Under the pieces are notes generated by a model. That model saw nothing but the letters and a program-made list of their open reading frames with translations, was not told where the DNA came from and did not search any database. Shown here piece after piece: positions 49,240 through 60,102 of a stretch of DNA of 64,000 bases. Source of the DNA: Deferrisomatales bacterium (GTDB taxonomy: Bacteria > Desulfobacterota > Deferrisomatia > Deferrisomatales > JACRMM01). The stretch is taken from positions 96,001-160,000 of the forward strand of contig JAWSUI010000002.1 in NCBI GenBank assembly GCA_033551855.1, written 5' to 3'. Within the stretch, counting starts at the first letter, position 1; each line of letters opens with the position of its first letter. The position numbers and the translations under genes were made by a program.

Positions 49240-50523
49240 ATGGCGAGTCGCGTCAACCGAAGGCAGATCGTCTCCTGGTCCCTCTACGACTGGGCCAACT
49301 CCGCCTTCGCCACGACGGTCATGGCCGGGTTCTTTCCCCTCTTCTTCAAGGAGTACTGGAACGCCGGCGTCGACCCCACGGTGAGCACCCTGCGGCTGGG
49401 AATCGCCAACTCGGCGGGAAGCCTCGTGGTGTTGGCGCTGGCCCCGGTCCTGGGCGCGGTCGCAGACTGGGGGGGCTCCCGGAAGCGCTTCCTGCTCTTC
49501 TTCGCCGCCCTGGGGGTCTGCGCCACGGCGGGACTGTATGCGGTGGGCGAAGGGGGCTGGGCGGCGGCGGCGGCCCTCTACGCGACGGGCCTGGTGGGCT
49601 TCGCCGCCGGCAACATCTTCTACGACGCCCTCCTCGTGGGCGTTGCCGGGGAGGACCGGGTGGACCTGGTCTCCGCCCTCGGGTACGCACTGGGGTACCT
49701 CGGGGGCGGGCTCCTCTTCGCGGCCAACGTGGCGATGGCCCTCTATCCCTCCTGGTTCGGCCTGGAGGACTCCGCGGCGGGGGTGCGGGCCTCGTTTCTC
49801 ACGGTGGCGCTGTGGTGGGCCGTCTTCGGGGTCCCCTTGTTCCTGTTCGTGCCGGAGGGGGGGCCCCGAAGGCGCCTCTCGCCGGTTGGGGCCGTGGTCG
49901 GGGGGTTCCGGCGGTTGGCGACGACCTTCCGCGAGGTGCGCCGCCTGAAGGTGGTGATTCTGTTTCTGGTGGGGTACTGGCTCTACATCGACGGGGTCGA
50001 CACGATCATCCGGATGGCGGTCGACTACGGCCTGGCCCTGGGGCTCTCGTCCCAGGCGCTGATCACCGCGCTCCTGGTGACCCAGTTCGTCGGGTTCCCG
50101 GCGGCCATCGCCTTCGGCTGGCTCGGCCAGCGGCTGGGCCCCAAGACCGGCATCTACCTGGCTCTGGCGGTCTACGTGGGGGTCACGGTCTGGGCCTACT
50201 TCATGGACAGCGAGGCGGAGTTCTTCGGCATGGCGGTGACCATCGGGCTGGTGCAGGGGGGGGTGCAGTCCCTGAGCCGGTCCTTCTACACCCGCATCAT
50301 CCCGCCCTCGAAGGCCGGGGAGTTCTTCGGTTTCTACAACATGATGGGAAAGTTCGCCGCCGTGGTCGGGCCCGTGGCGATGGGGTGGGTGGCGGTGGCC
50401 ACGGGGGAGCCGCGCAACGCCATCTTTGCCATCACGGTGCTGCTCGTCGCCGGGGCGGGGTGTCTGTACCTGGTGGACGAGGACAAGGGGCGCCGGGAGG
50501 CCCGGGTCCTGGAGGGGCTGTGA
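49240..50523 (+). CDS. MFS transporter, UMF1/Atg22-like
   Basis: SW.LYDWANSAFATTV, NIFYDALL, GYALGYLGG, QSLSRS, EFFGFY. Confidence 0.92.
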   Translation: MASRVNRRQIVSWSLYDWANSAFATTVMAGFFPLFFKEYWNAGVDPTVSTLRLGIANSAGSLVVLALAPVLGAVADWGGSRKRFLLFFAALGVCATAGLYAVGEGGWAAAAALYATGLVGFAAGNIFYDALLVGVAGEDRVDLVSALGYALGYLGGGLLFAANVAMALYPSWFGLEDSAAGVRASFLTVALWWAVFGVPLFLFVPEGGPRRRLSPVGAVVGGFRRLATTFREVRRLKVVILFLVGYWLYIDGVDTIIRMAVDYGLALGLSSQALITALLVTQFVGFPAAIAFGWLGQRLGPKTGIYLALAVYVGVTVWAYFMDSEAEFFGMAVTIGLVQGGVQSLSRSFYTRIIPPSKAGEFFGFYNMMGKFAAVVGPVAMGWVAVATGEPRNAIFAITVLLVAGAGCLYLVDEDKGRREARVLEGL

Positions 50524-50527
50524 GGCC

Positions 50528-51442
50528 GTGACCGGGCTCCGCCGCGCCTTCGTGGTGAACCCCGCCTCGGCCGGTTGCCCCCGGGACCTGGGGGGCCGAA
50601 TCCTGCGGCGGTTCCCGGGCGCCCGGGTCCGGCAGACCCGGGGGCCCGGCGACGGGGGCTCCCAGGCTGCCCTGGCCGTGGAAGAGGGGGCCCGCGTCCT
50701 GGTGGCCTGCGGCGGCGACGGCACCGTGCGCGAGGTGGCGACGGCGGCGGCCGCCGCCGGCGCCACCCTCGGCCTGGTGCCCGTGGGCATGGTGAACCTC
50801 CTGGCCTCCGAGCTGGGGTTGCCGCGGGGGGTGGAGGGTGCCCTGCAGGTGGTCGAGGAAGGCCGCACGGTCGACGTCTACCCGGGCCGGTGTGAGCCGC
50901 AGGGGGGGACGGAGACCCTCTTCTTTCTCTGCGTGACGGCGGGCCCGGACGCCGACGCCGTCCACGCCGTGGGCCGCGACAAACGCTTCCTGGGCCGGTA
51001 CGCCTACGGCCTGCGCTTTGCCCTGCGGCTGCTGCGCCCCCTGACGGACGAGGTCGCGTGGGACGAAGGGGGGGCGGCCGGCCGGCGGGGCCGGTGCGCC
51101 CAGTTCCTCTGTCTCAAGCTGCCCCACTACGCCGGCCGGTATCGCGTCTCGGAGGCCGTCTCCCCCTACCGCCCGGGCCTCGAGGCCGTGGCCGTCGCCG
51201 GGGGGCGGGGGAGGGTCCTCCGGTTCTTCGCCGCCGCCCTGGGCGGCCGGGTTCGACCGCTGCGCGGGGTCTCGCGGTTTCCCGTCACAGACGTCGTGCT
51301 GCACCTGCCGGGGCACGGCCGGTTCCAGGTGGACGGAGACCCCTTCACCGCCCCGGCGGTGCGCCTCACCGCGGGTCGCGACCCCCTCCGGGTGCTGGCG
51401 CCGGCGGGGGCATGTTGCGGTCCGGAGCGGACGGCCCCATGA
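50528..51442 (+). CDS. Diacylglycerol kinase-family lipid kinase
   Basis: VVNPASAG, ACGGDGTVREV, P.G..NLLA.ELG, FQVDGD. Confidence 0.85.
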   Translation: MTGLRRAFVVNPASAGCPRDLGGRILRRFPGARVRQTRGPGDGGSQAALAVEEGARVLVACGGDGTVREVATAAAAAGATLGLVPVGMVNLLASELGLPRGVEGALQVVEEGRTVDVYPGRCEPQGGTETLFFLCVTAGPDADAVHAVGRDKRFLGRYAYGLRFALRLLRPLTDEVAWDEGGAAGRRGRCAQFLCLKLPHYAGRYRVSEAVSPYRPGLEAVAVAGGRGRVLRFFAAALGGRVRPLRGVSRFPVTDVVLHLPGHGRFQVDGDPFTAPAVRLTAGRDPLRVLAPAGACCGPERTAP

Positions 51443-52092
51443 GGGGGCGGCCGATCCTCCTCGCCGGTCTGCTGGCGCTCGGCGTGGCGCTGGGCTACGC
51501 CGGAGTCCTGGACCATCCGCGGGTCCGGGAGCTCCTGGGGGCCGCGGCGGGGCAGTGGTGGACGCCGCCGGCCCTCGTGGCGGCCATGACCGGCGCCTAC
51601 GCCTTCGCCCTGCCCGGGTCCGCCCTGATCCTGCCGACGGCGCTCCTCTACCCTCCCCCGTTGACCGCCGGCATAGCCGCGGTGGGGGGAGGTCTGGGGG
51701 CCCTCTGGGCCTACCACGTGGCCGGCCGCCTGGGAGCCTCCTGGGTCCGCGAGGTCTCGGCCAGCCCTGCCTTTGGGCTCCTGCGCCGCAACAGCGGTTT
51801 CCCCGTCCTGTGCGCGCTGCGGGTCCTGCCGGCGTTCCCTCACTCCTTCATCAACTACGGGGCCGGGCTGCTCCGGGTGCCCCGGCCGGCCCTGTTCCTC
51901 TCGGCCGTGGCCGGCCTCGGGGTCAAGGGGTACCTCTATGCCGCCGCTGTCCAGCAATTGGCCGAGGCCGGGGACCCCGTCGAGCTGGCGAACCTCCGGA
52001 CCCTCTGGCCGCTGCTGGCCCTGGCTCTGCTCCTGGGAGCCGGGTGGGGTCTGCGTCGGTGGTGGGAAGGCAACGGGGGGCGCAGCGGGTAG
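51439..52092 (+). CDS. TVP38/TMEM64 (VTT/DedA-like) membrane protein
   Basis: LPGS, G..GA..AY..AG.LG, LRVLP.FP...INY.AG. Confidence 0.85.
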   Translation: MRGRPILLAGLLALGVALGYAGVLDHPRVRELLGAAAGQWWTPPALVAAMTGAYAFALPGSALILPTALLYPPPLTAGIAAVGGGLGALWAYHVAGRLGASWVREVSASPAFGLLRRNSGFPVLCALRVLPAFPHSFINYGAGLLRVPRPALFLSAVAGLGVKGYLYAAAVQQLAEAGDPVELANLRTLWPLLALALLLGAGWGLRRWWEGNGGRSG

Positions 52093-52109
52093 GGGCGGGT
52101 CCCCGGCCC

Positions 52110-55100
52110 TCAGGATGTCCCTGGGTCCTCCGCCTCCCTGCCCGAAGATCCCCACCAGTTCCGCAGCCGCCGCAGGCGGCGGGGTCCGCGTCGAAAGATT
52201 TCCTCCAGGGAGAGATGGGGGTCTCGGGCCGGATCCTCCAGGTAGTCCCGGATCGCGTCGAGACGGCGTCGGAGGTCCCCCTCCAGGGCGAGGCGCAGCC
52301 CAGCCCTTCCCGCCAGGATGCGCTGCTTGAGGTTCGGTGGGGGGCGCTCTCCTTGGTGCTTCCTCAGCTTGTACTCGATCCGTGCGGCGATCAGACCCAA
52401 GAGGGTCTCCTGGTGCTCGGGGCCGAGCCACAGCACCTCCGGGACCAGGTCCCCGAAGTGGGTCACCCCCAGGACATCCTTCCCCTGCGCCCAGTAGCCG
52501 GCAAGGAACTCCGGATCGAGGTCCCGGTAGTTCTGCAGGGGCAGATACATGCGCCGCAGGTGCTGGAGGACCTTTTCGGCCTTGCGCCTGTGGCCGCCGA
52601 TGATGACGGGGCTCCCCACCTCTCCGCGCTTGACCCCCTTGGTCCAGGGGGCGCCCGTGATCCCGAAGTCGTTGCACACCGGAATGAGCAGGAGGGCGGA
52701 GAGGGTGCTGATGGCCAGCGCGTAGCCCGCCGAGGGGCCTCCCACCGCGTAGGAGGCGGACAGCAGTTGGTGGTGGACGGTGTACTTGTCGAGGAACTCT
52801 CCCAGAAGCCGGGCGACGTTGATCTTGGGTGAGAGGCCCTGGAGGTAGTTCTCCACCAGTGTAAGTGCCTCCCGGGCGGACTGTTGGGTCATCTGGACGG
52901 CCATGTCCATCTCCGCCGCGGTGGGCGCGGTCGAGGAGACCGCACCGGTCACCAGCACCTTCTCGGCCGAGAGGTTGTAGACGAGGCTCGTCGCGATGGG
53001 CAGGAGCACGCCCGCCACGTCGCTTGCCCCCACACCGACGATGAACCCAACCTGGGGCTCTTGGCTGAGCTCCGCCTCCAGGAACTCGTCGAGTTGCACC
53101 TTCCCCTTCTTCGTCGGGCTCTGACTCATCTCCTCCCGGGCCGCCTCGAGGTGGGAAGCTGCCAGGGGGTAGTCGTCGCTGCCCCGCACCCCGTCCGCCA
53201 GCGCCAGGACCTCTTCGCAGTGCCGCAGGAACTCCAGGGGCTCGCTCTCCAGCCGTGCCTTGGCCGTTCGAGGAGCCCCGAGGGCCTCCAGGATCCCGAG
53301 GAGGATCCGCAGGTTGAACTTCACGAAGTTCTCTCGGGCTTCGGGGGGCGCTGCGGTGAGCTCCCGAAGCCTGCGAATGACCGCCCACTCCGTGGCCCTC
53401 AGGGCCAGGGCCTTGTCGGTGAAGGCGGCGTAATCGGCCGGCGTGTTGCACACCGCTCGGGCCGCCTCCTCGATCCGTGCGGGGTCGAGCTTCTCTGCCA
53501 GTGGGATGCCGGCCAGCTTCTTCGCCACGATCTCGGCGACGTCGTCCCGCCGCAAGTGTCCGCTGATCTCCAGGGCCTTGAGGCGCTTGGAGCGCACGAG
53601 GGCCGGGTCCAGGATGTCGAGGCGGTTGGTGGTGAGCACGGTGAAGACCCGGTTGAGGGGCACCTCCCCGTCCACGAGGTTGAGGAACTTGTTGGTCACT
53701 TTGTCCTGGGGTGCCCCTCCCGAGGGGCTCCGGCGGGGGACGAGGGCGTCCCCTTCGTCGATGAAGACCACGGCCGGCGCGATCATCTTGGCAATGTCGT
53801 ACACGTGCTCCAGGTTCTCCACCGTGCCGTCGATGGGGTTCATCGGATCCTGCAGGTCCGTGGGACGCACGGCCAGGTCGTGCACGTCGGGATTCTCGCT
53901 CAGCCACGCCCGGGCCAGGAAGGTCTTGCCGCTGCCAGGAGGGCCCGCCAGCACGAGCCCCTTCTCGTCGCTCACCCCGTAGTAGAGGCAGTTCATGGCC
54001 AGCTCGGAGAACTGGTTCTTGATCCCGCCCACGTACTGCTCCCAGCGCACCGAGCGATCCATCCGGTCCACGACCCGCTTGTAGAGATCCCCGTGGGCGT
54101 TGCGGGCCACCTGCTCGAAGGCGCTGCGCACCAGGAGGGCGTCGTCCAGGTGATCCGGCCGGAACCCCCCCCGCATCTCGACGATGGACCGGACCAGCTT
54201 GCGCACATAGGAGGGAGTGATCTTGAGCGCCTTCTCCCGGAAGATCGGGTAGAGCCGGTCAACCGCCGCTTCCAGATCCGCCGGGGGCAGGTACGAGATC
54301 CCCGGGGGCAGGGGACCCACGGGCGGGAAGCCCACCCGGATGTCCGCCCGCAGGAGCTCGATCCGCACGACCTCCCGCAGATTGTCGCGGCTCTTCCAGA
54401 ACTCGGAGACATCGACGATGCGGCCCTTCTCGACGAAGCGGCGGTAGATGGCCGCATCGAACCTCTCGGGCTGGTCCGTCGTGGCGACGAGGACACAGTC
54501 GCGCTGACCGTCGATGATCTCGTCCAGCAGGATGTTGGCGGTGTCCACCAGGGTCTGTTGCTGGCTCGAGACCGAGGTGGACCGGCTTTCCGCCCGGCCG
54601 AAGGCGCTGTGGGCCTCCTCCACGTGTCGGACGGTGGTGCGTCGAGGGTCCCCGAGGGCCTTGCGCAGGTAGTTGCCGGGTTCCCCGGCCAGGGCGGTCT
54701 GGTAGTCGTTGGGGGTGACCACGGCGTAGTCCACGGCGAGGCCCCGCTCCTGGAGCTCGGCCAGGTGCCCGGCAACGCGCTTCTGGAAGAGCCGCCGTAC
54801 CAGCCAGCGGCGCGAAAGGAACTGGTAGAGCTTGAGGCGCCGCCGGCGGTAGATGTCCTGTGCCAGGGTCGGATCCACCGACTCGATGGTGCGCCAAAAA
54901 GGCTCTTCGGCCAGCACCTCCTCGCGCTTCTTGCCCAGGTCGACCTCGGGAAGGACTTCGTGGCGGAACATCACGGCCTCGAGGGCCTCGGCCGTCGTCG
55001 CGGTCTTGCCGGCGCCGCTGGGACCGATCACCAGCAGTAGCGGGGCCTTGGGCACCTCGGGATCGGCCAGGTACTCCTTGCGGACGTGGACCCGGTAGAT

Positions 55101-55511
55101 CTTTTCGAGGAGCTCCCGGAACTCCGAGGGGACGTGAACGTCGGCGAGCTCCCGGTTCAGGAGCGCCAGCAGGTAGGTGTAGTCCTTGGCCGTCAGCTCC
55201 CTCTCCAGCATGCGGTTCCACGCCGCCCGGGGGGAGGTCTCTCCGGAGAATTCGAACCGGCGCTGCCAGTCGGTGAGGATCTGGGGGTCCCGCAGGATCG
55301 CAAACCCCTGTTCCCGAGGGCGCCAGAGCAGCGAGAGCAGCCCTTCCACCAGGCCGTGCAGGAGGCCCGACGGCGGGGTGAACTGGTTCAGGCGTGCCCG
55401 CAGGAATGCCTTGGTCTCGTAGGACCAAGAGGCCACGAGCGCCTCGATCTCCCGGATGCGCCGCTCCGGGAGGCGGACGTACCGGACCTCTCTGGTGACC
55501 CGTTTGGCCAT
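52110..55511 (-). CDS. Double AAA+ ATPase fused to a C-terminal Lon-like (S16) protease domain
   Basis: AAA1: GPSGAGKT, HVEEAH, TTDQPERFDAAIYRRF; AAA2: GPPGSGKT, VFIDEGD, TTNRLDILDPALVRSKR; protease: PQVG...G, VTG, QQSAREA, GGPSAG, ITG, IGG...K. Confidence 0.85.
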   Translation of the reverse strand: MAKRVTREVRYVRLPERRIREIEALVASWSYETKAFLRARLNQFTPPSGLLHGLVEGLLSLLWRPREQGFAILRDPQILTDWQRRFEFSGETSPRAAWNRMLERELTAKDYTYLLALLNRELADVHVPSEFRELLEKIYRVHVRKEYLADPEVPKAPLLLVIGPSGAGKTATTAEALEAVMFRHEVLPEVDLGKKREEVLAEEPFWRTIESVDPTLAQDIYRRRRLKLYQFLSRRWLVRRLFQKRVAGHLAELQERGLAVDYAVVTPNDYQTALAGEPGNYLRKALGDPRRTTVRHVEEAHSAFGRAESRSTSVSSQQQTLVDTANILLDEIIDGQRDCVLVATTDQPERFDAAIYRRFVEKGRIVDVSEFWKSRDNLREVVRIELLRADIRVGFPPVGPLPPGISYLPPADLEAAVDRLYPIFREKALKITPSYVRKLVRSIVEMRGGFRPDHLDDALLVRSAFEQVARNAHGDLYKRVVDRMDRSVRWEQYVGGIKNQFSELAMNCLYYGVSDEKGLVLAGPPGSGKTFLARAWLSENPDVHDLAVRPTDLQDPMNPIDGTVENLEHVYDIAKMIAPAVVFIDEGDALVPRRSPSGGAPQDKVTNKFLNLVDGEVPLNRVFTVLTTNRLDILDPALVRSKRLKALEISGHLRRDDVAEIVAKKLAGIPLAEKLDPARIEEAARAVCNTPADYAAFTDKALALRATEWAVIRRLRELTAAPPEARENFVKFNLRILLGILEALGAPRTAKARLESEPLEFLRHCEEVLALADGVRGSDDYPLAASHLEAAREEMSQSPTKKGKVQLDEFLEAELSQEPQVGFIVGVGASDVAGVLLPIATSLVYNLSAEKVLVTGAVSSTAPTAAEMDMAVQMTQQSAREALTLVENYLQGLSPKINVARLLGEFLDKYTVHHQLLSASYAVGGPSAGYALAISTLSALLLIPVCNDFGITGAPWTKGVKRGEVGSPVIIGGHRRKAEKVLQHLRRMYLPLQNYRDLDPEFLAGYWAQGKDVLGVTHFGDLVPEVLWLGPEHQETLLGLIAARIEYKLRKHQGERPPPNLKQRILAGRAGLRLALEGDLRRRLDAIRDYLEDPARDPHLSLEEIFRRGPRRLRRLRNWWGSSGREAEDPGTS

Positions 55512-55517
55512 GTCGGT

Positions 55518-56465
55518 TCAGCGGGCTGCGGGGGGGGCCGGCGCCGGCTGTGGCGGTGGGGCGGGCAGGGTCAAGGCGGGGGCGCCCCCGGTGTTTTGGA
55601 TCACCACCGTGTTCTGGCCCGTCTGGTTCTTCTCATAGGCCGTGGCCCACTTCTGCTGGTTGAGGAACTCGAGCAGGGCCGTGTCGGTGGCGCCATCGGG
55701 GCGCCCGACCTCCCGTTGGAGGTCCCGGATGCTCTCGACGTACGCGCCGTAGAGCTTCCGGATTCGGCTGGCCTCCTGGTCGGCGGCGTAGTTCTCCGCC
55801 TCGGCGATGAGCTCGCGCCGCTTCTTTTCCTCACTGGCTTCCACGAGGTTGTCGCCGAAGCGGGTCTCCCGGAGAACGAAGCTGACCACCTCTACGCCGT
55901 ACTTCTGTTCCAGGGTGGGCCCACCGACGTTGATGGGTCGGTCCTTGAGGGCCCGGTAGATCTCCTCCTTGATCTCTTCCCTCGCGCTCACGAGGCGGTT
56001 GATCTCCTGGGCCTGGAGAATGTCTTTCGCCAGCCCGTCGTAGTCGGCCTGGAGGAGCTCGAGCGGACGCAGGTTCTCGATCGCCCACAGGCGCAGGTCG
56101 CGGATGCGGAAGGTGAGGACACCGGAGGTCCAGAGGGCGACGTTCTCCCGGGAGATGATCCGCACCGGCTCCTCGACCCCCCCCAGCGCCAGGCGCTGGT
56201 TCATCAAGGGCACTTCTTGCTCGATCCGGGTGAAGAACGGGAGCCTCGTGTGCCAGCCGACCTCGGTGATCACCTCACGGGTGCCCCCCAGCCGCTCGAG
56301 CACCACGGCGTAGTTGAGGCGAACCTTGAAGATCGTGCGGGTCGCGTACACCACGGCGACGGCGCCGTAGAGGAGCCCCGCCAGGACCGCCAGGCCCACC
56401 AGGCGGCGCACGAGGGCCGTCACGGCGGCCCTCCTCAGCAAAGGGGGAGTCTCCGGGTGTTCCAT
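55518..56465 (-). CDS. SPFH/Band-7 (HflC-like) membrane protein
   Basis: N-terminal TM, VVLERLG, GWH.RLPF, ISRENV, .REEI, KYGVEV.SF....RF, helical AEAE segment. Confidence 0.85.
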   Translation of the reverse strand: MEHPETPPLLRRAAVTALVRRLVGLAVLAGLLYGAVAVVYATRTIFKVRLNYAVVLERLGGTREVITEVGWHTRLPFFTRIEQEVPLMNQRLALGGVEEPVRIISRENVALWTSGVLTFRIRDLRLWAIENLRPLELLQADYDGLAKDILQAQEINRLVSAREEIKEEIYRALKDRPINVGGPTLEQKYGVEVVSFVLRETRFGDNLVEASEEKKRRELIAEAENYAADQEASRIRKLYGAYVESIRDLQREVGRPDGATDTALLEFLNQQKWATAYEKNQTGQNTVVIQNTGGAPALTLPAPPPQPAPAPPAAR

Positions 56466-56855
56466 GTCGTCCCCTGGGCGGCCGGCGGGCCCGCGACGGA
56501 AAGGTGGAAGCGCTCCTTGGACAGGGTAGACGGGCCTGGCATCAGCGCAAGGCACCGGCTGTCGCCTGGTGACCCAGGCAGCCCCCCGGCGCCGCCAGGA
56601 GGAAGGCCCGGCGCACTGCCCTGTCGGGCCGATGGACCCGAACGACCCGCGTCCATCGTCAGATTCCGGGCGGGGCCGGAGCGTGACGCACTCGGGTGCC
56701 GCCTCGACCGCGGCATCGAACCCCGGGCAGAATCGCGGGGCTCGGCGCACCCGTTCCCGGGGGGGGCAGCCCGTCCCCAGCATCGGATTCGGCAGGAATG
56801 CGAAGAGACTCCCCGACCCCGAGCACGCGTCGGGCGAGGGATCCAGGAAGGCCTG

Positions 56856-57060
56856 GATCCACCGGCTGGTCGGCGAGCGGAGTCCGGGAGCCCCTGCGTT
56901 TCACCCCGCAATCCGCGACACTTCGACGAAGTGTCCCAGCAGTCCCCGGTGCGCCCGGCCTCACCCGCTTGCGCCGGCCTCGTCGGGTTGGTGGATGCGG
57001 TGCGGTGCTGCACTCCTGGGCTCCCGGACTCCGCCCCACAATGGGGTGGTGGATTCCGGG
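56856..57060 (+). repeat. About 200-bp dispersed repeat, copy 2
   Basis: See 41443-41644; begins within the palindrome GGATCCAGG-aagg-CCTGGATCC. Confidence 0.8.
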
Positions 57061-57198
57061 AAGGGTTGGTCCCTTGCGCCCCGGGCCGTTCCTCAGTAGA
57101 AAGGACGTCCATCCGGGCTTCCGTGGCACCTGCACCGGGACGAGGGGGGCGGGGGCCGCCCCGTGCTCCGGAGACGGTGTCGGAGCAGGAGGTGCCGC

Positions 57199-58233
57199 TT
57201 GAAGGTCCAGTTTCGGAATCTGGTGTTCGAGGGGGGTGGGGTCAGGGGCATTGCCTACGTGGGGGCCATGAAGTTGCTGGAGCAACGGGGAGCCCTCGAC
57301 CACGTCCGCAGGGTCGGCGGCGCCAGCGCCGGGGCGATCAACGCGCTGATCCACGCCCTGGGATTTCCGATCGCCGAGCAGCAGCAGCTTCTATCCTCGA
57401 CGGATTTCCGGCGGTTCCTCGACGACTCCTTCGGGGTGATCCGCGACGTGCGCCGCCTCGCGAGGGAATTCGGCTGGCACAAGGGCGACTTCGTCTCCAC
57501 TTGGGTGGGCGACCTCATCGAGAGCAAGCTCGGGCGGCGCGACGCTACCTTTCGGGACCTCCAGGCTGCCGGCCGTCCTGACCTCTACGTGGTCGGGACC
57601 AACCTGAGCACCGGGTGGGCAGAGGTCTTCTCCGCCGAGCGCCACGGCGACATGCCCCTGGCCAGGGCGCTGCGCATCAGCATGTCGATTCCCCTCTTCT
57701 TCGCGGCGGTGCGTCATGGGGCCCGGGGGGACGTCTACGTGGACGGGGGCGTGGTGCTGAATTACCCGGTCAAGCTCTTCGACCGGGAACGGTACGTGGA
57801 CCTCGCGGGGGAGCCCTACGGGGCGGCAAGCACGGCATACTACAGCCGCGAGAACGCCCGCTTCGCCCTGGAAAGGCCGGGGCGGAGCCCCTACGTGTAC
57901 AATCGGCAGACCCTCGGCCTGCGGCTGGACACCCGGGAGGAGATCGCGCTCTACCGGTACGACGAGCCCCCCAGGGGCCGCCCCATCTCCCGGTTCACGG
58001 AGTACGCCCGGGCGCTCACCTCCGCCCTGCTGCGGGTGCAGGAAAACCAGCACCTCCACGAGGACGACTGGCACCGTACCCTGTACATCGACACCCTGGA
58101 CGTCCGGACCACGGACTTTGCGCTGAGCGAAGAGAAGAAGGCGGCGCTCCTGGAGTCGGGCATCGCGTGTGCCGAGGCCTACTTCCGCTGGTTCGAGGAC
58201 CCGGCGCAGGTCCCCGCGAACCGCGTAGGGTGA
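57199..58233 (+). CDS. Patatin-like phospholipase
   Basis: NLVFEGGGVRG, GASAG, SMSIPLFF, YVDGG; TTG start after AGGAGGT. Confidence 0.93.
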   Translation: MKVQFRNLVFEGGGVRGIAYVGAMKLLEQRGALDHVRRVGGASAGAINALIHALGFPIAEQQQLLSSTDFRRFLDDSFGVIRDVRRLAREFGWHKGDFVSTWVGDLIESKLGRRDATFRDLQAAGRPDLYVVGTNLSTGWAEVFSAERHGDMPLARALRISMSIPLFFAAVRHGARGDVYVDGGVVLNYPVKLFDRERYVDLAGEPYGAASTAYYSRENARFALERPGRSPYVYNRQTLGLRLDTREEIALYRYDEPPRGRPISRFTEYARALTSALLRVQENQHLHEDDWHRTLYIDTLDVRTTDFALSEEKKAALLESGIACAEAYFRWFEDPAQVPANRVG

Positions 58234-58311: not shown

Positions 58312-60102
58312 GTGAACCCCCGCATCGCCTCCATGGAGAACCTCATCGCCCGGGATCCGGGCGGGAGGAACGTCTTCGGGCTGGTCGCCGCGGACCAGCT
58401 CCGGCTCGCCGCCCAGGCGCTGCGGTTCGCCCGGCGCGTGGCCGTGGTCACCGGGTACTTCATCCCGGAGGCCGGGGCGGGGGAGACGGATGGCCCCCCC
58501 GGGGCGGTGGCCCTCGGCGAGGCGCTGGGGGCCCTGGGCATCCCCGTGGACTACCTGACCGACGGCCCCAACGCGCCGCTTCTGCGCTCCCTGGGCGCCG
58601 AGCCCATCGTCCTCGAGGGCGCCCCTGAAGACGTCGCCGCGGGCTGCCGACGCTACCTGGAGGAGAGCCGCCCCACCCACCTGGTCTCGGTGGAGCGGGC
58701 GGGGCGCGCGGCGGACGGGACGTACCGCAACATGCGCGGTACCGACATCACGACCGTCACCGCACCCCTGGACGAGCTCTTCCTGGAGGCGTCGCAGCGG
58801 GGCCTGACCACCATCGGGGTCGGGGACGGCGGCAACGAGATCGGAATGGGCCGGGTGTTCGCCGCAACGAGAACCGGCGTGCCCCATGGCCGGGCGCTCG
58901 CCACCACCGTGGCGACCGACTTTTGCGTGGCCGCCGGCGTCTCCAACTGGGGAGCCTTGGGGCTCGTGGGCGCCCTCTCCGTCCTGGAGGGGCGGGACCT
59001 GCTGCCTTCCGGGGCTCGCCTCGTGGAGGGGCTCCACCGCTTGGTGGAGGTGGGCGGTGCCGTGGACGGCGTGACCCGCCGGCGGGAGCCGACGGTGGAC
59101 GGCCTGCCCGTGGCCGAGTCTCTCCGGGTCCTCGCGGAGTTGCGCGGACACGTGGCCCCGCCGCCCTTCCTCTCAGGAAGGCCCCTGGCCGTAGGCGTCC
59201 TGGGGTGGGGGGAGACCGGGCGCGCCGCCGCTGCGCTGTTGCGACGCCGGGGGCACCGTGTGCGGGTCTCGGACCACGCGGCGGTGTGTCCCCCTTCCGA
59301 GGAGGACGAAATCCTCGAGGGCTTCGAAGCAGGTGGGCATACCGTCGGCTTCCTCGCCCCCTGCGACGCGGTGGTTGCGAGCCCGGGTGTGCCGGTTGAC
59401 GCCCCGATCCGGGCGGCCCTCCACGAGCGGGGCATCCCCGTCGTGAGCGCCCTGGAGATGGCCTACGCGTTCTGTCCCCATCCCCTCGTAGGCGTGACCG
59501 GGACCGTGGGGAAGCGCACCACGGTGGAGCTCATCGGGCGCATGTTTCGCCAGGCCGGACGCCCCGTGGCTGTCGGCGGCAACCGCGGCGCACCGCTGGC
59601 GGCCCTCCTGCTCGGGCAGGACGGCCGGCCCCCGGAGCCGGACACGACTCTGGTCCTGGCGGTATCGAGCTTCCAGTTGGAGGGCGTGGTGCACTTCCGT
59701 CCCCCCATCGCGGCGATGCTCAACATCGACGCGGCACACCTCGACCGGCACCGCACCGTGGCCGAGTACGTGCGGGTCAAGAGCCGCATCTTCATGAACC
59801 ACCGCCCCGAGGACGTGCTCATCCTCAACGGCGAGGATTCGAGGCTCCGGCCCCTTGCATCGAAACACCCGGGGCGCACCTTCTTCGTGGGGCGCCGCCG
59901 GACCGGGGATCTCGGCGCGTGGCTGGAGCGGGGGGGGGTCCGTGCGAACACCGAGGGGGCCGTGGAGCGGCTGGGCCGGGCCGAGCACCCCTACCCGGAG
60001 GTGCTGCTCACCGCCGTGCTGGCCGCTCTGCTGAGCGGGATTCCCCCCGACGCCGCCGGGGCTGCGCTGCGCCGGGTTCGCACCGGGGGAGGGAGCACCT
60101 GA
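58312..60102 (+). CDS. DUF4392 (D-glutamate cyclase C-terminal-like) domain fused to MurD-like N-terminal and central domains
   Basis: DPGGR, TGYF, ETDGPPGA, VERAG...G.Y.NMRG, IGVGDGGNEIGMG, VSNWG; then VLGWGETG, ASPGVP, GVTGTVGKRTT, GGN.G, SSFQLE, HLDRH, KSRIF. Confidence 0.85.
   Translation: MNPRIASMENLIARDPGGRNVFGLVAADQLRLAAQALRFARRVAVVTGYFIPEAGAGETDGPPGAVALGEALGALGIPVDYLTDGPNAPLLRSLGAEPIVLEGAPEDVAAGCRRYLEESRPTHLVSVERAGRAADGTYRNMRGTDITTVTAPLDELFLEASQRGLTTIGVGDGGNEIGMGRVFAATRTGVPHGRALATTVATDFCVAAGVSNWGALGLVGALSVLEGRDLLPSGARLVEGLHRLVEVGGAVDGVTRRREPTVDGLPVAESLRVLAELRGHVAPPPFLSGRPLAVGVLGWGETGRAAAALLRRRGHRVRVSDHAAVCPPSEEDEILEGFEAGGHTVGFLAPCDAVVASPGVPVDAPIRAALHERGIPVVSALEMAYAFCPHPLVGVTGTVGKRTTVELIGRMFRQAGRPVAVGGNRGAPLAALLLGQDGRPPEPDTTLVLAVSSFQLEGVVHFRPPIAAMLNIDAAHLDRHRTVAEYVRVKSRIFMNHRPEDVLILNGEDSRLRPLASKHPGRTFFVGRRRTGDLGAWLERGGVRANTEGAVERLGRAEHPYPEVLLTAVLAALLSGIPPDAAGAALRRVRTGGGST

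Follow-up and report, generated by a model that had tools for sequence, protein, structure and literature searches.

The textbook ATP-dependent proteases of bacteria are Lon, FtsH, ClpXP/ClpAP, HslUV and the proteasome, and archaeal unfoldases of the Cdc48/VAT type work with a separate 20S proteasome. Partnerships between an AAA protease and proteins of the SPFH family are poorly understood both for HflK/C-FtsH and for prohibitin-m-AAA, and hflKC of E. coli is not known to be located in one operon with ftsH. Lon proteases are divided in MEROPS into the subfamilies A, B and C, to which the authors of a classification paper add LonBA; in the subfamily descriptions of that paper every Lon chain carries one AAA+ module of the HCLR clade, exactly 42 residues separate the catalytic Ser and Lys in LonA and LonB, and the residue before the catalytic Ser is Pro in LonA and Asp in LonB and LonC (PMC9569914). 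The architecture list of a 2008 survey of prokaryotic serine proteases comprises Lon_C alone, LON-AAA-Lon_C, Sigma54_activat(-AAA)-Lon_C, Mg_chelatase-Lon_C and PDZ-Lon_C, and AAA-AAA-Lon_C does not occur in that list (PMC2605481). NfeD is the only conserved operon partner named in the main text of a 2009 survey of prokaryotic SPFH proteins, a text from which the word 'ATPase' is absent (PMC2636767). In the present study we analysed a two-gene locus, encoding an SPFH protein and an AAA-AAA-Lon protein, on contig JAWSUI010000002.1 of a Deferrisomatales bacterium (assembly GCA_033551855.1, positions 96,001 to 160,000 of the forward strand; this whole stretch of 64,000 nucleotides is referred to as the window). 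As suggested by our sequence and structure comparisons, we consider it reasonably probable that this operon represents an uncharacterised self-compartmentalised AAA+ serine protease working with an SPFH scaffold.

Architecture and conservation of the AAA-AAA-Lon protein

On the minus strand of the window, the list of open reading frames (ORFs) includes one of 1133 amino acids (Table 1), the product of which, referred to below as AAA-Lon, begins with a helical N-domain, which is followed by two AAA modules, the first divergent (D1) and the second canonical and of the classic clade (D2); a helical linker then leads to a protease domain of the Lon type, and the chain ends in a helical tail. A sequence-only reading of this stretch, made without database searches, had proposed a tandem AAA+ ATPase fused to a Lon-type Ser-Lys domain, and both profile searches (two AAA stretches and Lon_C in Pfam) and fold comparison bear this proposal out; both Walker A motifs and the codons of the putative catalytic Ser and Lys lie exactly where it had placed them. 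Homologues retrieved by a word-indexed search (120 listed out of 684 relatives) comprise 1112-1154 amino acids and share 62-100% identity over 98-100% of the query, under generic annotations such as 'AAA family ATPase', 'SpoVK/Ycf46/Vps4 family', 'transitional endoplasmic reticulum ATPase' and 'hypothetical protein'. With a mean column identity of 76% in a 20-sequence alignment, the ORF is, as judged from sequence comparison, real and its family strongly constrained, far beyond chance.

The C-terminal domain has the Lon_C fold, as confirmed on the AlphaFold2 model of the whole protein (mean predicted local distance difference test score, pLDDT, 82; predicted template modelling score 0.62). In a structure search independent of Foldseek, the catalytic domain of E. 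coli Lon (1rr9_A) matched residues 820-1030 of the model over 180/182 residues with a Z-score of 17.4, a root-mean-square deviation (rmsd) of 2.8 A and 26% identity, followed by BsLonBA, AfLonB and MjLonB (Z 14.9-15.9). This comparison could have refuted the Lon-type assignment of the sequence-only reading and did not. Pfam Lon_C (PF05362) was recognised at residues 809-999 with 26.0 bits against a curated cut-off of 21.1, and all seven PDB sequences matched by a profile of the C-terminal region were Lon protease domains.

The HMMER alignment to the protease domain of A. fulgidus LonB places S927 and K977 on the catalytic dyad with 4+3 = 7 extra residues between them, in agreement with the seven-residue insertion proposed from the letters alone, where the two codons had been counted as 50 apart against 43 in E. 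coli Lon. Ser927 is preceded by Pro, as in the A-type, and in the model S927 and K977 lie at the N-terminal ends of helices 926-941 and 976-982, respectively. An alignment of 25 sequences, including seven divergent members with 32-40% identity, revealed K169, E299, K529, E586, N629, R640, R643, G924-G929 (with S927), G972, G973 and K977 to be invariant in 25/25. Within the IIGGHRRK motif singled out by the sequence-only reading, the two glycines and the lysine thus belong to the invariant set, whereas H974, and with it the 'GGH' form of the motif, is variable.

The AAA family profile (PF00004) matched AAA-Lon in two stretches (E-value 4.8e-27, best at 520-645), and Foldseek aligned 640-750 columns with chains of p97/Cdc48 (E-value ~5e-20). 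Two-module matches were also obtained independently of Foldseek with NVL (Z 19.5, 476 residues), Rix7 (Z 18.8, 474/553) and VAT (Z 17.6, 478/544). Taken as a unit of two modules, residues ~120-805 can be aligned to NVL, Rix7, VAT and p97. In D2, the Walker B residues D585-E586, the sensor 1 residue N629 and the arginine fingers R640 and R643 are all present. VAT and p97 D2 match this module with E-values from 1.8e-41 (VAT) to 5e-38, FtsH, p97 and Vps4 superimpose on it with Z 17-19 and rmsd of 2.7-3.8 A, and its best matches (CDC48, PAN, FtsH; VAT, p97; FtsH, Vps4, spastin) all belong to the classic clade. D1 has the AAA strand order, with a Walker B-like V297-E298-E299, in which E299 is the invariant Walker B glutamate, and Y356-R357-R358 resembling the second region of homology. 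A phmmer search of the PDB with D1 alone gave P-loop matches only (best E-value 0.016), and the AAA identity of D1 is therefore based on the second Pfam stretch and on the tandem structural alignments. The motifs read by eye as HVEEAH and TTDQPERFDAAIYRRF in D1 and as VFIDEGD and TTNRLDILDPALVRSKR in D2 are found in the translation and map, in the predicted AAA folds, to the strands and helices where such motifs belong.

Hydropathy analysis of AAA-Lon identified neither a transmembrane segment nor a signal peptide, its sole hydrophobic maxima (821-839 and 928-946) forming the core of the Lon fold. The tail carries, after a poorly conserved helical hairpin, the motif R-D-P-H-L-S-L-E-E-I-F, which is conserved in the main clade and weak in the divergent clades, and which in its sequence resembles a docking peptide.

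The exhaustive search, clustered to representatives at 50% identity, delineated a narrow family of one main cluster and seven full-length divergent clusters with 34-40% identity. One of the proteins, MBR9683063.1 (P0124; 1099 amino acids, full-length, 40% identity), originates from a metagenome-assembled genome labelled Candidatus Woesearchaeota archaeon; either the family extends to DPANN archaea or the contig was mis-binned. Protein P0131 (903 amino acids), considered as a shorter natural form, was rejected as a 5'-truncated fragment with no start Met. Two archaeal clusters of the ESM Atlas combine AAA, Lon_C and AAA_5 (919 amino acids, 118 members, mostly Thermoproteota; 909 amino acids, 110 members, mostly Bathyarchaeota) and reach 0.97 by language-model features in comparison with AAA-Lon; they may represent a shorter sister family.

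The architecture recurs across genomes: among 185,579 species genomes searched, 439 stretches encoding an AAA-Lon relative were found, 75 of which were retained as loci for the neighbourhood analysis. These loci are labelled Thermodesulfobacteriota, Deltaproteobacteria or Desulfobacterales, with the exceptions of one labelled 'bacterium' only and one Pseudomonadota. The presence of the family in cultured Desulfobacterales, namely Desulfosarcina alkanivorans (PL12) and Desulfatitalea tepidiphila (WP_076750425.1), makes it experimentally accessible.

Operon partnership with an SPFH gene

An SPFH gene was located directly upstream of AAA-Lon on the same strand in 68/75 genome loci and in 3/3 further metagenome loci. 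The seven loci lacking it have less than 100 nucleotides of upstream DNA, so the SPFH gene is present in 71/71 loci with at least 100 nucleotides. The distance from the SPFH stop to the AAA-Lon start ranges from -29 to +34 nucleotides, most commonly -1 (19/70 loci), which fits translational coupling. A metagenome scan for divergent clades yielded 31 loci, of which three, near full-length and with upstream DNA, were main-clade-like; the counts of the SPFH link stand for the main clade, the clades at 32-40% identity, including the Woesearchaeota-labelled protein, being outside the count. Strict searches of 401 genomes from the phylum of the window, performed with the family-specific C-terminal part of AAA-Lon and with the SPFH protein, detected both in the same 10/401 genomes and on the same contigs. 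The SPFH gene is an obligate operon partner of AAA-Lon, and five other neighbours in the window (patatin, GLUCM-like/Mur ligase, VTT, DAGK and ATG22-like) were each conserved in 0/75 loci. NfeD was not found in the SPFH/AAA-Lon operon, AAA-Lon being the only gene conserved beside SPFH. The obligatory SPFH partner, which is the most informative part of the context, had been missed by the sequence-only reading.

Comparison with orthologues sets the start of the SPFH gene at ATG 56465 and shows that the start of the longest ORF at 56783 is not real; the SPFH stop is located 6 nucleotides ahead of the AAA-Lon ATG. A conserved basic tail (..RRA.V....RR) precedes the single hydrophobic segment. The nearest solved structures are stomatin and QmcA, which account for 10/10 matches (E-values 9e-4 to 6e-3). 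At one locus (L061) the SPFH gene appears as two overlapping ORFs and the AAA-Lon match begins only at residue 238, pointing either to a frameshift in this copy or to a fault in the assembly.

Table 1. Positions in the window of the AAA-Lon and SPFH genes and of their predicted features
Feature	Coordinates	Strand	Basis or description
Whole AAA-AAA-Lon gene	52110..55511	(-)	1133 amino acids + stop; ATG start; ORF list and translation
N-terminal domain, residues 1-145	55077..55511	(-)	Mostly helical with short beta-hairpin in model; very conserved, e.g. ILTDWQ.RFE.SG
D1, divergent AAA module, residues ~150-480	54072..55064	(-)	Second AAA stretch in Pfam; tandem structural alignments; invariant residues
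D1 Walker A GPSGAGKT, residues 163-170 (K169)	55002-55025	(-)	Translation
Helical insertion in D1, ~70 residues (186-256), helix 1 to strand 2	54744..54956	(-)	Model helices 192-253 between strands 185-188 and 259-265
D1 pore-loop-1 position, residues 271-277, Q-T-A-L-A-G-E	54681..54701	(-)	Alignment columns
D2, canonical classic-clade AAA module, residues ~487-720	53352..54053	(-)	Pfam AAA 520-645; VAT/p97 D2 matches; invariant residues
D2 Walker A GPPGSGKT, residues 523-530 (K529)	53922-53945	(-)	Translation
D2 pore-loop-1 position, residues 555-562, D-P-M-N-P-I-D-G	53826..53849	(-)	HMMER alignment to VAT; alignment columns
Helical linker, residues 721-816	53064..53351	(-)	Model helices 723-816; pLDDT <50 at 807-823
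Lon-type (S16) protease domain, residues 817-1030	52422..53063	(-)	1rr9_A fold match; Pfam Lon_C; PDB profile matches
Putative catalytic Ser927	52731..52733	(-)	Invariant G-G-P-S-A-G; aligns with catalytic Ser of archaeal LonB
Putative catalytic Lys977	52581..52583	(-)	I-G-G-x-x-x-K; aligns with Lys of G-G-V-T-Q-K in A. fulgidus LonB
C-terminal helical extension, residues 1031-1133	52113..52421	(-)	Helices 1031-1052 and 1059-1092, pLDDT 85-92
SPFH (Band_7) partner gene	55518..56465	(-)	315 amino acids + stop; Band_7 51.1 bits, cut-off 23.6; start from orthologue comparison
SPFH single hydrophobic (predicted transmembrane) segment, residues ~22-41	56343..56402	(-)	Hydropathy maximum 2.28 at residue 22

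Proposed mechanism and the alternatives

According to the reading that we favour, the genes at 56465-55518 and 55511-52110 (-) would constitute one operon for an ATP-dependent protease system. The 1133-residue product would be soluble and would combine an adaptor-type N-domain and two type II-style AAA modules, as in p97, VAT and NVL, with a Ser927-Lys977 Lon-type domain. By comparison with known assemblies of Lon, FtsH and p97, it may assemble into a hexamer, with the ATPase rings stacked on top of a ring formed by the protease domains, and the terms 'double ring', 'chamber' and 'unfoldase' are used here in this conditional sense. D2, which retains every catalytic ATPase residue, is the likely motor of ATP-driven proteolysis, and D1 would bind nucleotide and serve mainly in assembly or substrate handling. 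The upstream single-pass SPFH protein, similar to stomatin and QmcA, might contact the protease and localise or gate it at a membrane microdomain, a role suggested by analogy with HflK/C-FtsH, prohibitin-m-AAA and stomatin-NfeD; membrane proteins might be among the substrates.

A number of findings, given in this and the following paragraphs, weigh against this reading. In the active-site region, the model blocks containing S927 and K977 reach a mean pLDDT of only 63 and 59, and 49 residues are found between the two, compared with the 42 stated for LonA and LonB. The first Walker B acid differs among clades (E/D/L/V in D1, D/Q/N in D2). Threading AAA motors normally use an aromatic residue in pore loop 1, and the main clade has none in either ring (A-L-A-G in D1, N-P-I-D-G in D2). 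At the D1 position the divergent clades carry T-x-W-Y-G-E: W-Y-G was observed in 5/7 divergent representatives, Y-Y-G in 1/7 and L-A-G in 1/7 (P0130), and the main clade has L-A-G throughout. The occurrence of W-Y-G in divergent D1 indicates that the D1 alignment is in register, and, judging from these columns, the loss of the aromatic paddle of D1 looks specific to the main clade; the D1 pore loop of p97, which Leu-Ala-Gly resembles, is presumably likewise devoid of an aromatic paddle. In D2, K-W-V-G of VAT aligns with the invariant N-P-I-D-G, with a two-residue insertion relative to VAT, and an aromatic residue was present in 0/12 displayed sequences from all clades examined. Such non-aromatic loops argue against a textbook hand-over-hand unfoldase and, as features of the alignment, would constitute the main evidence against the simple picture of a Cdc48-like unfoldase feeding a chamber.

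The same loops, atypical for a degradation motor, would suit a non-proteolytic remodeller or segregase of SPFH-associated complexes, whose Lon-like domain would be no more than a platform for ring formation or regulation, as it is in RadA/Sms, ComM and BrxL; the Lon-like domains of these three also match the model (Z 13.7-14.2). True Lon domains match it better, however (Z 17.4 versus at most 14.2; identity 23-27% versus 10-15%), and the dyad with its G-G-P-S-A-G and I-G-G-x-x-x-K contexts is invariant in all 25 sequences down to 32% identity, which is not expected of a purely structural domain. We therefore regard a remodeller of this kind as quite unlikely.

The topology of the partner adds a further difficulty to the proposed SPFH-assisted protease. 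The N-terminal flank of the SPFH hydrophobic segment carries more Lys and Arg than the C-terminal flank in 66/67 orthologues (mean 5.6 versus 3.2), and by the positive-inside rule the N-tail would be cytoplasmic and the SPFH domain periplasmic, as for HflK/C. With a periplasmic SPFH domain and a protease devoid of a membrane segment, only the basic N-tail of ~20 residues would be in reach of AAA-Lon. A re-entrant hairpin or an inverted segment would instead allow the protease to be held directly in a cage on the cytoplasmic side. Complex prediction with residues 1-150 and 1028-1133 of AAA-Lon and residues 45-315 of SPFH, that is, with the N-tail and transmembrane segment (1-44), which seem to be the likeliest site of cytoplasmic contact, left out, gave a score of 0.00 (mark 0.32), a value that speaks neither for nor against binding.

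This conserved basic N-tail, the sole part predicted to be cytoplasmic from the charge bias, could also act as a degron or handle for a protease that mainly processes or turns over its own SPFH partner, thereby controlling SPFH ring assembly, with no third-party substrates. Strict operon coupling and co-occurrence agree with such a function, the NfeD/STOPP protease PH1510, reported to act with its stomatin partner, provides a model for it, and operons that pair an SPFH protein with a serine protease are already known (PMC2636767). On the other hand, a double-AAA machine of 1133 residues would be a large investment for a single substrate, and the SPFH protein is conserved at full length with no obvious cleavage-prone variable region except the extreme C-terminus, and our analysis makes this explanation unlikely.

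The distribution of the system weighs in the same direction as the pore loops and the topology: AAA-Lon is patchy, occurring in 10/401 genomes of the phylum and, with the C-terminal query, in 0/3 other genomes of the window's own family, while 5/6 genomes of one sister family possess it. Such a distribution indicates that it is not a core housekeeping gene. The genome of the window also encodes two Lon frames of LonA size, three FtsH frames and, on another contig, a tandem Band_7 pair, and the module hence adds to the classical proteases and does not replace them. The one NfeD match in the genome also lies on another contig.

Patchiness, together with matches of PADLOC defence ATPases (IetA, TRIP13) and of NCBIfam IteA to the D2 segment, would be compatible with a module for anti-phage defence or for suicide triggered by stress, with an AAA ATPase and a protease as its effector. 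All eight PADLOC matches, however, fall on P-loop/AAA segments, the generic core (best IetA, profile 117-241 of 374), and none involves the SPFH protein. The orthologues are single-copy and very conserved, and many Desulfobacterales share a partly conserved context, 34 loci having a hydrolase upstream and 27-28 loci having amidohydrolase- and CinA-like genes downstream, unlike a variable defence island. The PADLOC result and the genomic context rule out a defence system as the principal explanation, and even as an alternative it appears most improbable.

Outside the operon, the flanks (49240-52092 and 57163-58233) encode membrane- or lipid-related proteins: a divergent patatin-like phospholipase (57163-58233, +), a VTT/DedA-type protein, a DAGK-type lipid kinase and an ATG22-like MFS transporter. 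The gene at 58312-60102 (+) encodes an unusual-looking fusion of 596 amino acids, with a MurD-like N-terminal domain, a Mur ligase middle domain and a D-glutamate cyclase-like C-terminal domain (PF14336, E-value 2.8e-76). The real SPFH start is separated from the patatin gene by approximately 700 nucleotides (56466-57162), and the long ORFs of this interval are probably spurious, a product of the 70% G+C. A sigma-70-like scan of 51700-57300 detected no promoter-like sites, terminator-like sites in the same region numbered two, on the opposite strand, versus 2.7 expected, and no Rfam families were found in 51000-58000. Elsewhere in the genome, three further weak Lon_C-like matches, confined to the C-terminal half of the profile (G000:C7:24885-25190, C17:58961-59275 and C13:55418-55738), lie in open frames of 983, 880 and 626 amino acids, respectively, and may represent RadA-, ComM-, LonC- or BrxL-type proteins.

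Comparison with known systems

None of the NCBIfam models listed reaches its cut-off on AAA-Lon. The CDC48 model TIGR01243 obtained 84.6 bits against a cut-off of 802.65, with only residues 512-813 aligned, and the lon model TIGR00763 (37.7 versus 608.05), the LonB models TIGR02902 (39.5 versus 723.3) and TIGR00764 (31.7 versus 516.6) and the FtsH model NF008004 (55.8 versus 1008) remained far below theirs. The description of the protein as 'Cdc48-like' in the sequence-only reading consequently stands for the tandem classic modules, which align with p97 and VAT, but not for membership of the Cdc48 family. Its view of the architecture as uncharacterised agrees with our searches, in which neither a curated family nor a solved structure with the AAA-AAA-Lon architecture was found, and in which the literature, with subscription-only papers outside the coverage, yielded no report of an AAA-AAA-Lon or SPFH-Lon system. 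As judged from these model scores, AAA-Lon consists of recognisable parts and as a whole belongs to no curated family, being neither Lon, Cdc48 nor FtsH in the curated sense. That it is nonetheless a divergent member of one of these characterised families (Lon, Cdc48/VAT or FtsH) under a generic annotation is suggested by the matches of its individual parts and by the generic names in the sources. We consider this very unlikely, given that the curated models fall so far below cut-off, that in every known family one of the three catalytic modules of AAA-Lon is missing, and that Lon classifications assign one HCLR-clade AAA+ module to each chain (PMC9569914).

With Lon (MEROPS S16: LonA, LonB, LonC and LonBA), AAA-Lon shares the C-terminal Lon_C fold, the dyad in homologous motifs and the presence of ATPase and protease in one chain, and with LonA also the Pro before the Ser (PMC2605481, PMC9569914). 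It differs in carrying two classic-clade modules in place of one HCLR-clade module and in the 49, not 42, residues between Ser and Lys, and it adds a helical linker of ~100 residues, a C-terminal helical tail and the obligate SPFH operon partner. The LON N-domain was not among 25 of 27 Pfam families listed, and hydropathy revealed no LonB-type membrane anchor inside an AAA module. Cdc48, p97 and VAT have the same tandem arrangement of D1 and D2 classic AAA modules, whereas AAA-Lon possesses a covalently fused protease, a divergent D1 with a 70-residue insertion and a non-aromatic D2 loop. Residues 1-145 matched no Pfam family, including the Cdc48 N-domain, in the whole-protein search, and are mostly helical in the model.

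FtsH with HflK/HflC and the mitochondrial m-AAA/i-AAA proteases with prohibitin/SLP2 resemble the present system in the fusion of a classic AAA module to a protease in one chain and in the genetic or functional pairing with an SPFH scaffold (PMC12048511, PMC12330512). FtsH has one AAA module, a Zn-metalloprotease domain of the M41 type and two transmembrane helices, whereas AAA-Lon has two AAA modules, a serine protease domain and no membrane segment, and Pfam gave no Peptidase_M41 match in it. It is a tentative and rather doubtful thought that the locus stands for an unrecognised class of prokaryotic energy-dependent proteases, in which a double ring of the p97 type, with the Lon chamber built in, would be tethered beneath or inside an SPFH ring, possibly via the basic N-tails, the principle of FtsH-HflK/C and m-AAA-prohibitin having arisen anew and independently, here with a serine protease. 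If this were true, the change from Trp-Tyr-Gly to Leu-Ala-Gly in D1 and the non-aromatic D2 loop would mark a handling of substrates unlike that of known AAA+ proteases. Whichever reading applies, the non-aromatic loops offer a natural test case for the need of an aromatic 'paddle' in degradation. A type II classic-AAA motor and a Lon protease in one chain would be a new combination in the bacterial set and would link Cdc48-type unfoldases and Lon chambers, lineages that are usually treated separately. The pairing with SPFH would be a second, independent example of the partnership between SPFH proteins and AAA proteases, and its simplicity, with two genes only, would lend itself to structural studies.

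RadA/Sms, ComM and BrxL likewise have a Lon_C-like fold that lies next to a P-loop ATPase ring or follows it C-terminally, as reflected in the Z-scores given above; these proteins act on DNA, whereas the dyad of AAA-Lon is invariant and its ATPase modules are of the classic protein-remodelling AAA type. The stomatin-NfeD systems (STOPP; PH1510/PH1511 of P. horikoshii and qmcA-ybbJ of E. coli) correspond to the present locus in that a single conserved operon encodes an SPFH protein together with a serine protease (PMC2636767). They differ from it in the protease, which in NfeD is a ClpP-like membrane protease and in AAA-Lon is predicted to be ATP-dependent, soluble and Lon-type.

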